Shown here: piece by piece, positions 43,188 to 51,090 of the stretch
Layout of the letters: each line of letters starts with the position of its first letter
Numbering within the stretch: the first letter of the stretch is position 1
Assembly: GCF_013122565.1 (NCBI RefSeq)
Contig: NZ_CP053258.1
Reading direction: 5' to 3' (one strand)
Source: Escherichia coli
GTDB lineage: Bacteria; Pseudomonadota; Gammaproteobacteria; Enterobacterales; Enterobacteriaceae
Length of the DNA: 64,000 nt
The notes under the pieces: model-generated
Told to the model about the DNA's origin: nothing
The model's input: the letters and a program-made list of their open reading frames with translations, nothing else
The model's database searches: none
Made by a program: the position numbers and the translations under genes

Positions 43188-43267
43188 GCCTGATGCGCTA
43201 CGCTTATCAGGCCTACAAAGATGCACGATGGAGTAGGCCGGATAAGGTGTTTACGCTGCATCCGGCA
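43188..43267. repeat. REP (repetitive extragenic palindrome) pair
   Basis: gcctgatgcgctacgcttatcaggcctac and gtaggccggataaggtg...gcatccggca motifs. Confidence 0.6.
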
Positions 43268-43338
43268 TGGAAAACGCGCACTTTGTTATCAATCTGGGGC
43301 CAGCAAATGCTGGCCTGATTTGTTCTTGAGGGAAGACT

Positions 43339-44058
43339 ATGATGCGCAAAATGCTGCTGGCGGCAGCACTTTCAGTGACGGCAATGACCGCTCACGCCGA
43401 CTACCAGTGCAGCGTCACGCCGCGTGACGATGTGATTGTCAGCCCGCAAACCGTGCAGGTGAAGGGCGAAAACGGCAATCTGGTGATCACGCCAGACGGC
43501 AACGTGATGTATAACGGTAAGCAATATTCCCTGAATGCCGCCCAGCGCGAGCAGGCGAAGGATTATCAGGCTGAACTCCGTAGCACCCTGCCGTGGATTG
43601 ATGAAGGCGCGAAAAGCCGCGTCGAAAAAGCCCGTATTGCGCTGGATAAAATTATCGTTCAGGAGATGGGCGAAAGCAGCAAAATGCGCAGCCGTCTGAC
43701 CAAACTTGATGCGCAGCTGAAAGAGCAGATGAACCGCATTATCGAAACGCGCAGCGATGGCCTGACGTTTCACTATAAAGCCATTGATCAGGTTCGCGCC
43801 GAAGGCCAGCAATTAGTGAATCAGGCAATGGGCGGAATTTTACAGGACAGCATTAATGAAATGGGCGCGAAAGCGGTGCTGAAAAGCGGCGGTAACCCAT
43901 TACAGAATGTGCTGGGAAGCCTGGGGGGACTGCAATCCTCAATCCAAACCGAGTGGAAAAAGCAGGAAAAAGATTTCCAGCAGTTTGGCAAAGATGTTTG
44001 TAGCCGCGTTGTGACTCTGGAAGATAGCCGCAAAGCCCTGGTCGGGGATTTAAAATAA
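43339..44058 (+). CDS. yggN: YggN (DUF2884), periplasmic
   Basis: 239 aa with signal peptide MMRKMLLAAALSVTAMTAHA. Confidence 0.85.
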   Translation: MMRKMLLAAALSVTAMTAHADYQCSVTPRDDVIVSPQTVQVKGENGNLVITPDGNVMYNGKQYSLNAAQREQAKDYQAELRSTLPWIDEGAKSRVEKARIALDKIIVQEMGESSKMRSRLTKLDAQLKEQMNRIIETRSDGLTFHYKAIDQVRAEGQQLVNQAMGGILQDSINEMGAKAVLKSGGNPLQNVLGSLGGLQSSIQTEWKKQEKDFQQFGKDVCSRVVTLEDSRKALVGDLK

Positions 44059-44233
44059 TCCTCTATTTTAAGACGGCATAATACTTTTTTATGCCGTTTA
44101 ATTCTTCGTTTTGTTACCTGCCTCTAACTTTGTAGATCTCCAAAATATATTCACGTTGTAAATTGTTTAACGTCAAATTTCCCATGCAGAGCTAAGGGAT
44201 AATGCGTAGCGTTCACGTAACTGGAGGAATGAA

Positions 44234-45280
44234 ATGGAGTTTTTCAAAAAGACGGCACTTGCCGCACTGGTTATGGGTTTTAGTGGTGCAGCATTGGCAT
44301 TACCCAATATCACCATTTTAGCAACCGGCGGGACCATTGCCGGTGGTGGTGACTCCGCAACCAAATCTAACTACACAGCGGGTAAAGTTGGCGTAGAAAA
44401 TCTGGTTAATGCGGTACCGCAACTGAAGGACATTGCGAACGTTAAAGGCGAGCAGGTAGTGAATATCGGCTCCCAGGACATGAACGATAATGTCTGGCTG
44501 ACACTGGCGAAAAAAATTAACACCGACTGCGATAAGACCGACGGCTTCGTCATTACCCACGGTACCGACACGATGGAAGAAACTGCTTACTTCCTCGACC
44601 TGACGGTGAAATGCGACAAACCGGTGGTGATGGTCGGCGCAATGCGTCCGTCCACGTCTATGAGCGCAGACGGTCCATTCAACCTGTATAACGCGGTAGT
44701 GACCGCAGCTGATAAAGCCTCCGCCAACCGTGGCGTGCTGGTAGTGATGAACGACACCGTGCTGGATGGCCGTGACGTCACCAAAACCAACACCACCGAC
44801 GTAGCGACCTTCAAGTCTGTTAACTACGGTCCTCTGGGTTACATTCACAACGGTAAGATTGACTACCAGCGTACCCCGGCACGTAAGCACACCAGCGACA
44901 CGCCATTCGATGTCTCTAAGCTGAATGAACTGCCGAAAGTCGGCATTGTTTATAACTACGCTAACGCATCCGATCTTCCGGCTAAAGCCTTGGTAGATGC
45001 GGGTTATGACGGCATCGTTAGCGCTGGTGTGGGTAACGGTAACCTGTATAAATCCGTGTTCGACACGTTGGCAACCGCCGCGAAAAATGGCACTGCGGTA
45101 GTGCGTTCTTCCCGCGTACCGACGGGCGCTACCACTCAGGATGCCGAAGTGGATGATGCGAAATACGGCTTCGTCGCCTCTGGCACGTTGAACCCGCAAA
45201 AAGCGCGCGTTCTGCTGCAACTGGCTCTGACGCAAACCAAAGATCCGCAGCAGATCCAGCAGATCTTCAATCAGTACTAA
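44234..45280 (+). CDS. ansB: L-asparaginase II (periplasmic)
   Basis: 348 aa; signal peptide plus asparaginase N-terminal motif TGGTIAGGGDS. Confidence 0.95.
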   Translation: MEFFKKTALAALVMGFSGAALALPNITILATGGTIAGGGDSATKSNYTAGKVGVENLVNAVPQLKDIANVKGEQVVNIGSQDMNDNVWLTLAKKINTDCDKTDGFVITHGTDTMEETAYFLDLTVKCDKPVVMVGAMRPSTSMSADGPFNLYNAVVTAADKASANRGVLVVMNDTVLDGRDVTKTNTTDVATFKSVNYGPLGYIHNGKIDYQRTPARKHTSDTPFDVSKLNELPKVGIVYNYANASDLPAKALVDAGYDGIVSAGVGNGNLYKSVFDTLATAAKNGTAVVRSSRVPTGATTQDAEVDDAKYGFVASGTLNPQKARVLLQLALTQTKDPQQIQQIFNQY

Positions 45281-45285
45281 TCGCC

Positions 45286-45314
45286 TCGCCCCGGTATCGT
45301 GCCGGGGCTTTTTC
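45286..45314 (+). terminator. Intrinsic terminator after ansB
   Basis: gccccggtatcgtgccggggc hairpin followed by ttttt. Confidence 0.8.
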
Positions 45315-49229: not shown

Positions 49230-49246
49230 GGCGTTCCTTTAATTCC

Positions 49247-49951
49247 TTATTTTTTAGAGTAATCACGCGCACCAAAAATTGCAGTGCCGATACGAACCAT
49301 CGTGCTACCTGCCGCAATGGCGGCTTCCATATCGTCCGACATTCCCAGAGAGAGCGTGTCGATATGCGGGTAGCGCGTTTTCAGACCGGCAAATGCTACA
49401 GCCATTTGGCGTGCAACTTCAAACTGCCTTACATATTCTGACTCAGGCGCAGGGATTGCCATCAGCCCGCGCAGACGTAAACGCGGTAGTTCAGCGACCG
49501 CCGCTGCCAGCTCGTCCAGTTCTGCCAGTTGAATCCCGGACTTACTGTTTTCATCACTAATATTAATTTGAATCAGTACGTTAAGAGGGGGAAGTTCTGC
49601 CGGGCGCTGATCGTTGAGGCGGGTAGCAATGCGCAAACGGTCGATGGTATGACACCAGTCGAAATGCTCTGCCACCAGGCGGCTTTTATTAGACTGCAAC
49701 GGGCCAATAAAATGCCATTCTAATCCTGTTACGCCCAGTTCCTGAAAGTGGCGAATTTTATCTACCCCTTCCTGAACGTAGTTTTCACCAAATTGACGCT
49801 GCCCGGCATCAATGGCTTCTGCGATGGCGCTCGCAGGTTTTGTTTTACTGACTGCAAGCAGCGTAATTTCTTCTGGAGAACGGCCGCAACGCGTTGCAGC
49901 CGCTGAGATTTTGTCCCGGACCTGTGCCAGGTTATGCGCAATATCGTTCAT
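49247..49951 (-). CDS. yggS: PLP homeostasis protein YggS
   Basis: 234 aa; alanine-racemase-N fold; PLP lysine context LLAVSKTKP. Confidence 0.9.
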   Translation of the reverse strand: MNDIAHNLAQVRDKISAAATRCGRSPEEITLLAVSKTKPASAIAEAIDAGQRQFGENYVQEGVDKIRHFQELGVTGLEWHFIGPLQSNKSRLVAEHFDWCHTIDRLRIATRLNDQRPAELPPLNVLIQINISDENSKSGIQLAELDELAAAVAELPRLRLRGLMAIPAPESEYVRQFEVARQMAVAFAGLKTRYPHIDTLSLGMSDDMEAAIAAGSTMVRIGTAIFGARDYSKK

Positions 49952-49968
49952 TTTCCGAGGATCTTAGT

Positions 49969-50949
49969 ATGAATATGGAAGAAATTGTGGCCCTTAGTGT
50001 AAAGCATAACGTCTCGGATCTACACCTGTGCAGCGCCTGGCCCGCACGATGGCGCATTCGCGGGCTAATGGAAGCTGCGCCGTTTGATGCGCCGGACGTC
50101 GAAGAGCTACTGCGGGAGTGGCTGGATGACGATCAGCGGGCAATATTGCTTGAGAATGGTCAGCTGGATTTTGCCGTGTCGCTGGCGGAAAACCAGCGAT
50201 TGCGCGGCAGTGCGTTCGCGCAGCGGCAAGGTATTTCTCTGGCGTTACGGTTGTTACCTTCGCACTGCCCGCAGCTCGAACAGCTTGGCGCACCACCGGT
50301 ATTGCCGGAATTACTCAAGAGCGAGAATGGCCTGATTCTGGTGACGGGGGCGACGGGGAGTGGCAAATCTACCACGCTGGCGGCGATGGTTGGCTATCTC
50401 AATCAACATGCTGATGCGCATATTCTGACGCTGGAAGATCCTGTGGAATATCTCTATGCCAGCCAGCGATGTTTGATCCAGCAGCGGGAAATCGGTTTGC
50501 ATTGTATGACGTTCGCATCGGGATTGCGGGCCGCATTGCGGGAAGATCCTGATGTGATTTTGCTCGGAGAGCTGCGTGACAGCGAGACAATCCGTCTGGC
50601 GCTGACGGCGGCAGAAACCGGGCATCTGGTGCTGGCAACCTTACATACACGTGGTGCCGCGCAGGCAGTTGAGCGACTTGTGGATTCATTTCCGGCGCAG
50701 GAAAAAGACCCCGTGCGTAATCAACTGGCAGGTAGTTTACGGGCAGTGCTGTCACAAAAGCTGGAAGTGGATAAACAGGAAGGACGCGTGGCGCTGTTTG
50801 AATTATTGATTAACACTCCCGCGGTGGGGAATTTGATTCGCGAAGGGAAAACCCACCAGTTACCGCATGTTATTCAAACCGGGCAGCAGGTGGGGATGAT
50901 AACGTTTCAGCAGAGTTATCAGCAGCGGGTGGGGGAAGGGCGTTTGTGA
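49969..50949 (+). CDS. yggR: Type IV pilus retraction ATPase homolog PilT/YggR
   Basis: 326 aa from MNMEEIVALSVKH; Walker A GATGSGKST and Walker B DVILLGE. Confidence 0.85.
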   Translation: MNMEEIVALSVKHNVSDLHLCSAWPARWRIRGLMEAAPFDAPDVEELLREWLDDDQRAILLENGQLDFAVSLAENQRLRGSAFAQRQGISLALRLLPSHCPQLEQLGAPPVLPELLKSENGLILVTGATGSGKSTTLAAMVGYLNQHADAHILTLEDPVEYLYASQRCLIQQREIGLHCMTFASGLRAALREDPDVILLGELRDSETIRLALTAAETGHLVLATLHTRGAAQAVERLVDSFPAQEKDPVRNQLAGSLRAVLSQKLEVDKQEGRVALFELLINTPAVGNLIREGKTHQLPHVIQTGQQVGMITFQQSYQQRVGEGRL

Positions 50950-50959
50950 CGTTGCCATG

Positions 50960-51090
50960 CCCGATGCGCAAGCTTATCGGGCCTACAAAGGCAATAAACG
51001 TCTGATGCGACGCTTGCGCGTCTTATCAGACCTACAACCGCTGCCACATGTAGGCCGGATAAGGCGTTCACGCCGCATCCGGCAATAAGG
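50960..51090. repeat. REP cluster
   Basis: gatgcgacgcttgcgcgtcttatcagacctacaaccgctgccacatgtaggccggataaggcgttcacgccgcatccggca. Confidence 0.65.

Follow-up and report, generated by a model that had tools for sequence, protein, structure and literature searches.

The REP (repetitive extragenic palindromic) sequences of Escherichia coli carry a conserved GTAG 5' to the foot of a palindrome and are classed as y, z1 and z2 (Ton-Hoang et al., PMC3333891). They are combined into bacterial interspersed mosaic elements (BIMEs): BIME-1 is a single copy of y plus z1 with a long L linker that contains a site for integration host factor (IHF), BIME-2 is a tandem of y plus z2 with a short S linker and s, l or r flanks, and atypical BIMEs are chimeras (PMC3333891). 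A 34-nt REP consensus, GCCGGATGCGGCGTGAACGCCTTATCCGGCCTAC, has been published together with the conserved tail CTTATC(c/a)GGCCTAC (PMC12306157), and the long form known from K-12, GTAGGcatGATAAGaCGcgcCAgCGtCGCATCaGGCA, is z2 (Nunvar et al., 2010, Table 1, PMC2817692), in agreement with REP325 (Qian et al., 2015). We analysed a stretch of 64,000 nucleotides of an E. coli genome (RefSeq assembly GCF_013122565.1, contig NZ_CP053258.1), hereafter the window, for which an earlier note made from the sequence alone had claimed palindromic REP units after yggL, yggM and yggR. Such units were present at all three places. We regard it as almost certain that they are y, z1 and z2 units of the REP family and that they form BIMEs, which occupy spacers free of genes where transcription units have their 3' ends.

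The window contained ten REP units, all within three clusters: two in the yggL–yggN spacer (cluster 1), five in the yggM–hemW spacer (cluster 2) and three in the yggR–ruvX spacer (cluster 3) (Table 1). The coordinates given earlier for cluster 1, 43188–43267, were exact; the 'at least four' units reported at 46425–46640 proved to be five (46427–46637), and the cluster placed at 50960–51090 consisted of three (50959–51084). Three y units matched the 34-nt consensus with 0, 1 and 3 mismatches, and a search of the window allowing up to three mismatches gave three matches against 0.00 expected. The 14-nt REP tail, CTTATCMGRCCTAC, at up to two mismatches had eight matches in the 64 kb, all of them in the clusters, against 0.71 expected, and the consensus of an alignment of the ten units was itself a y REP. 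A covariance model built from these units (R1), run over the whole window with filters off, scored the ten at 29–56 bits. The strand of each unit was assigned by its GTAG end, which was kept in nine of ten units, the exception being 46516–46546 with GTCG. Rfam's only REP-derived family had no match in the window beyond the clusters. Nothing outside the clusters scored above 14.3 bits with R1, and two sub-threshold candidates there (21718–21742 and 41248–41267) were rejected as chance hairpins in coding regions.

Across the ten-unit alignment 98.8% of the cells of the expected hairpin were paired, against 22–40% in slid controls, and four of the nine pairs showed compensatory changes on both sides. 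Unit lengths ranged from 28 to 36 nt, and the unit at 46427–46460 had become a perfect palindrome. As RNA the spacers folded far more stably than shuffled sequences on either strand, with z at -6.7 and -7.9 in cluster 2, at -5.2 and -4.3 in cluster 3, and at -3.3 in cluster 1. The list of open reading frames (ORFs) and the way near-identical loci are annotated in RefSeq place all ten units outside genes. With up to 40 pieces counted per record, a query with cluster 2 had matches in 5,425 of 5,426 E. coli genomes, at a median of at least 36 places each. Both a failure to align with the REP consensus and uniqueness to a single locus were looked for, and neither applies. Consensus, GTAG, covarying imperfect hairpin, extragenic position and genome-wide repetition, together with the K-12 orthology described below, support the REP/BIME identity: all three belong to the REP family of E. 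coli, as ordinary copies of a repeat that was known before, at these positions too. The gene yafM, which encodes the REP-associated tyrosine transposase of K-12, was absent from the K-12 stretch that matches this part, the remainder of the window not having been scanned for it.

Table 1. REP units, linkers, associated ORFs and other RNA-like features of the window (strand of REP units by the GTAG end; scores in bits are from the R1 model unless another source is named)
Feature	Position	Strand	Remarks
Cluster 1, z1-type REP, short form, 29 nt	43188..43216	-	GTAG end on minus strand, GTAGGCCTGATAAGCGTAGCGCATCAGGC; 41.0 bits
Cluster 1, linker, 16 nt, AAAGATGCACGATGGA	43217..43232	.	Between CTAC and GTAG ends
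Cluster 1, y-type REP, 35 nt	43233..43267	+	3 mismatches to 34-nt consensus; 49.6 bits
Terminator-like hairpin after cluster 1	43297..43316	+	GGGCCAGCAAATGCTGGCCT then GATTTGTTCT
Cluster 2, unit a, y-like REP that keeps GTAG	46427..46460	+	Perfect stem, internal mismatch lost; 42.5 bits
Cluster 2, unit b, z2-type REP, long form, 36 nt	46466..46501	-	47.2 bits
Cluster 2, S-type linker, 14 nt, AACCGCTGCCACAT	46502..46515	.	
Cluster 2, unit c, decayed y REP	46516..46546	+	GTCG replaces GTAG; about 4 nt shorter; 29.4 bits
Cluster 2, short s-type linker ATCAAC, y to z2	46547..46552	.	
Cluster 2, unit d, z2-type REP	46553..46588	-	Identical to cluster 3 z2 unit; 45.8 bits
Cluster 2, S-type linker, 14 nt, AACCGTTGCCACAT	46589..46602	.	
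Cluster 2, unit e, y REP	46603..46637	+	1 mismatch to consensus; 52.8 bits
Cluster 3, z1-type REP, 28 nt	50959..50986	-	39.5 bits
Cluster 3, z2-type REP, 36 nt	51000..51035	-	45.8 bits
Cluster 3, S-type linker, 14 nt, AACCGCTGCCACAT	51036..51049	.	Identical to linker 46502-46515
Cluster 3, y REP	51050..51084	+	0/34 mismatches to published consensus; 55.9 bits
75-aa ORF, best read as repeat artefact	46397..46624	-	About 88% BIME sequence
90-aa ORF, best read as repeat artefact	46443..46715	+	29-aa peptide period, LIRPTT.ATCRL twice
C0719 RNA (Rfam RF00117)	25084..25305	-	Full-length match, 299 bits, E 1e-77
tRNA gene (Rfam RF00005)	34524..34596	-	68.3 bits (Rfam)

The three clusters differed in arrangement. 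Cluster 1 (z1–16 nt–y) held a single copy each of y and z1, inversely oriented. Cluster 2 had the layout y'–5 nt–[z2–S14–y']–ATCAAC–[z2–S14–y], with orientations +, -, +, -, +, and is a BIME-2 of two copies preceded by an additional y-like unit. Cluster 3 (z1–13 nt–[z2–S14–y]) is an atypical BIME. A 98-nt s–z2–S–y unit was 97% identical between 46543–46640 and 50990–51087, which lie 4.4 kb apart, whereas its ungapped identity to its own tandem neighbour was 60%, far lower than between the clusters; the 97% identity fits copying of the segment as a whole unit. The REP-associated transposase needs GTAG and a stem mismatch (PMC3333891), and both were kept in eight of the ten units.

Cluster 2 also resembled a described RNA. 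The Rfam family RF02564 (naRNA4) was modelled on one REP325 BIME-2 unit from between yjdM and yjdN (Qian et al., 2015), and two y–linker–z2 pairs on the plus strand, 46429–46498 and 46515–46585, reached 61.2 and 64.8 bits against its curated gathering score of 59.5; both matches were full-length, covering model positions 1–77 with the two hairpins kept. The middle cluster might on this basis encode nucleoid-associated noncoding RNAs like naRNA4, able to bind HU and to bridge DNA cruciforms, which would make it a dedicated RNA gene and not a passive 3' UTR repeat. Some support comes from the reported transcription of most REPs and the reported part of other cruciform-forming REPs in HU/naRNA4-dependent contacts (Qian et al., 2015). 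We nevertheless consider it unlikely. As the Rfam model is in effect one BIME-2 y–l–z2 unit, any BIME-2 should score, and the match mainly repeats the classification of cluster 2 as BIME-2. The linker is s-type here, 6–7 nt shorter than the l of the model, the locus is yggM/hemW and not yjdM/yjdN, there are two copies compared with six in REP325, and strains with zero or one unit are without any y–z2 pair. The match therefore appears to be a resemblance and not evidence for an RNA gene, and we continue to treat cluster 2 as a BIME-2.

All three clusters were found at the orthologous spacers of K-12, whose RefSeq copy has no repeat_region features; the comparison consisted of an alignment of the orthologous spacers and a scan with R1. 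Unit counts for clusters 1, 2 and 3 were 2, 3 and 3 in K-12 and 2, 5 and 3 in strain A30, where the clusters occupied the same positions as in the window. In K-12, clusters 1 and 3 (2966–3092 and 10696–10776 of the K-12 locus) were more decayed than in the window, with CTAC changed to CTGG in the z1 unit of cluster 1 and GTAG to GTGT in the y unit of cluster 3, and should be poorer transposase substrates because of the published requirement for GTAG.

The yggM–hemW spacer differed in length between strains. It measured 64 nt with one y unit in BL21-AI, Ec42 and A22, 154 nt with three units in K-12, 7/2 and O104:H4, and 241–242 nt with five units in the window, A30 and EDL933, each step adding one z2–S–y unit of about 88 nt. 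In strain 118UI (NZ_CP032515.1) a three-gene TRAP-transporter operon (about 3.1 kb, locus 7703–10907) lay between hemW and yggM, with no REP unit detected by the R1 model in that interval and a single unit in the ruvX–yggR spacer. These alleles with zero, one, three and five units are a length polymorphism as described for BIME-2. The only short-read contig with the exact yggM of the window (Logan SRR11451224, 3376 nt) stopped inside the BIME, 175 nt past the yggM stop codon, and illustrates assembly breakage by REP clusters.

Between the window and the closest five-unit allele (A30 = EDL933), 14 of 15 differences fell within the 107 nt from 46432 to 46538, and six of them formed three base-paired couples (46432/46457, 46469/46494 and 46477/46486) in which pairing was kept or created; two of these paired both-arm substitutions were in unit b (46466..46501). 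The right half of the cluster (46539–46655) was identical to A30/EDL933. Over 46425–46550 no E. coli genome was more than 91.3% identical, compared with about 98% in the flanks. The clustering and pairing of the differences point either to gene conversion, with another REP copy as the source, or to selection that keeps the hairpin. Taken further, the polymorphism might act as a lineage-specific switch of expression or topology, with the paired substitutions reflecting hairpin selection rather than gene conversion; extra y–z2 units might then alter 3'-end stability of the hemW operon, read-through into the gene opposite or gyrase loading, or give rise to naRNA4-like RNAs that bind HU. The paired changes are compatible with such selection and with gene conversion. 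As strains with no or one unit exist, the additional copies cannot be essential, and they may be selfish DNA or neutral. We hold a switch to be quite improbable, and prefer to see the alleles as ordinary BIME-2 copy-number variation. The REP-associated tyrosine transposase and/or recombination would spread, duplicate and homogenise the units, and such spread and duplication would account for the alleles with zero, one, three and five units.

The earlier note had further proposed that such clusters can act as mRNA stabilisers or as binding sites for gyrase or IHF. Gyrase preferentially cleaves the y units of BIME-2 (PMC6379681), which makes the y+z2 units of clusters 2 and 3 candidate gyrase sites, and gyrase binding at the clusters is plausible by analogy. 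A RepRanger supplement did not mention these genes, and a literature search combining their names with REP returned nothing relevant. Some observations weigh against our main reading of the clusters. The genes were not mentioned in the searchable supplements of gyrase Topo-seq studies. The first two units of cluster 3 (z1 and z2) share their orientation, unlike the strict alternation of BIMEs. The units at 46427–46460 (without the stem mismatch) and 46516–46546 (without GTAG) have lost features required by the transposase and look decayed. Finally, strains manage with zero or one unit at the yggM–hemW spacer.

For IHF the outcome was different. If the clusters were IHF-binding elements of the RIP/RIB (BIME-1) type, cluster 1 would be the candidate, having the composition of BIME-1 with y and z1 in inverse orientation and in single copy. 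Its linker (43217..43232) was too short for the L motif of BIME-1 and was without an IHF core, and no other cluster had a long L linker or the core WATCAANNNNTTR; this core occurred four times in the whole window, each time outside the clusters and spacers. IHF binding at the clusters is unlikely on this sequence evidence, and we assign a very low probability to the clusters being RIP/RIB elements as opposed to the BIMEs described above.

A role at mRNA 3' ends had been proposed as well. REP hairpins in 3' untranslated regions (UTRs) shield the upstream mRNA from exonucleases and attenuate transcription (PMC12306157, PMC2817692). From published work on the family we infer that the clusters may serve as exonuclease barriers, dampers of translation and gyrase sites, and that a transposase may have spread them. 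Transcribed as the 3' UTRs of trmB–yggL, yggM, the yggS...hemW operon, yggR and yqgE–ruvX, the hairpins would block 3'->5' exonucleases, and could also serve as partial, Rho-assisted attenuators; this would carry most weight where genes converge, at yggM/hemW and yggR/ruvX. Stabilisation of mRNA 3' ends by the clusters is plausible by analogy.

The same hairpins could, in principle, be ordinary Rho-independent terminators of the flanking genes and not members of a repeat family. They are G+C-rich and at gene 3' ends, and in the yggR/ruvX spacer a weak terminator-like site, the only one there, was called on the minus strand (51015–50996), built from the z2 REP followed by UUUAUUGCCUUUG. Against this, the other REP hairpins were without a T-run, a scan for intrinsic terminators found no terminator-like site in the convergent yggM–hemW spacer, near-identical sequence recurred at unrelated loci (97% over 98 nt) and in dozens of copies per genome, and a separate terminator-like hairpin followed cluster 1. 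We thus give very little credence to terminators as an explanation of the hairpins, which are REP units. From the hairpin after cluster 1 to the start codon of yggN (43339) there are only about 22 nt, which leaves little room for a downstream yggN promoter.

Position relative to stop codons suggests a further effect on two genes. [quoted passage not shown] On the hemW mRNA the stem of unit e began 9 nt past the stop codon (46646–46648, minus strand), and on the yggR mRNA the stem of the cluster 3 z1 unit likewise began 9 nt past the stop codon (50947–50949). Since 9 nt lies within the range of up to 15 nt, hemW and yggR are candidates for damping of translation by REPs, in which the proximal units would stall terminating ribosomes.

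The note had also flagged two ORFs in cluster 2 as repeat artefacts lying entirely within it. Both exist in the program-made ORF list. Strictly they are not confined to the cluster, as both overrun it: 46397–46624(-) overlaps the last 8 nt of yggM, and the last 70 nt of 46443–46715(+) are antisense to hemW. In the main the description holds, with 73–88% of each being BIME sequence. That they are artefacts was borne out by annotation, indels, Pfam and exact look-up. With 75 and 90 open codons and GTG/TTG starts, one or both could formally be real small protein genes overlapping the repeats, an idea that is hardly credible: there is no PGAP coding sequence in the 242-nt five-unit spacer of A30 and EDL933, an 86-nt and a 1-nt indel in K-12 break both frames and leave remnants of only 46–57 aa, and most of both ORFs is missing from the three-unit alleles, the one-unit (64-nt) allele and the zero-unit strain 118UI. 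Pfam gave no match for the 90-aa ORF and, for the 75-aa ORF, only a sub-threshold one to ZSWIM4-8_C (E 0.077; 13.3 bits against a cut-off of 27.3), and neither exact sequence occurred among about 15 billion public proteins, which do include the exact YggM of the window. The internal repeats of the 90-aa peptide reflect nothing beyond the DNA period, its 29-aa repeat mirroring 87 nt, and both strands are open over the same DNA, as expected of stop-poor, G+C-rich palindromes. The two ORFs are best read as read-throughs of the repeats. Further ORFs of 95, 68 and 50 aa start inside clusters 1 and 3 (42974–43261(-), 43221–43427(+) and 50919–51071(-)) and extend, out of frame or antisense, into the genes next to them; these too are probably artefacts of the same kind.

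The gene names used earlier (yggL, yggM, yggR) were correct, near-identical RefSeq loci carrying yggL, yggN, ansB, yggM, hemW ... yggR and ruvX. The interval from 42.8 to 51.7 kb of the window corresponds to the trmB-yggL-yggN-ansB-yggM / hemW-rdgB-yggU-yggT-yggS / yggR / ruvX-yqgE region, in reversed orientation relative to K-12. The sequence differed from K-12; the best identity among RefSeq complete E. coli genomes was 98.1% over 8.3 kb and 98.3–98.4% over 12.8 kb of core genes, and about 5,400 E. coli genomes compared over region 43000–64000 were all 95–99% identical to the window. The exact YggM of the window is public as QJU27034.1 / WP_171460380.1 from E. coli. Elsewhere the window carried a C0719 RNA and a tRNA gene (Table 1).

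The chief use of these results is in annotation: the three spacers should be labelled REP/BIME, and ORFs lying or starting within them should be discarded. The locus is a tidy textbook case of BIME-2 copy-number variation, and hemW and yggR are easily testable candidates for the reported damping by stop-proximal REPs. Nothing changes in what is known of REPs; this lineage has a slightly different allele.

Set beside the closest described systems, cluster 1 shares with BIME-1 a y and a z1 unit in inverse orientation and differs by its short 16-nt linker without the L motif; relative to the RIP/RIB elements it is without both L linker and IHF core. As for stop-proximal damping REPs, the reported range does not extend to the hairpins following yggL (at 32 nt), yggM (stem at about 25 nt) and ruvX (at about 40 nt). 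With REP325/naRNA4, cluster 2 has in common the y hairpin, short linker and z2 hairpin in tandem with a constant S-like spacer, a likeness known here at the level of sequence, and differs in a y-to-z2 linker of 5–6 nt instead of about 13 nt. Relative to known REPs the window has its own details, namely five units in cluster 2 against three in K-12, variants of units that carry paired substitutions, a unit without GTAG and another without the stem mismatch. In kind, nothing differs from the E. coli REPs and BIMEs described before (Stern, 1984; Gilson, 1991; Bachellier, 1999; Ton-Hoang, 2012): the units share with known REPs the imperfect 28–37-nt hairpin with its AA/GC mismatch, the GTAG at the foot of the palindrome and y units with 0–3 mismatches to the consensus, and with known BIMEs the extragenic location at 3' ends, inverted pairs, short linkers, tandem copy-number variation between strains and the positions occupied in K-12.

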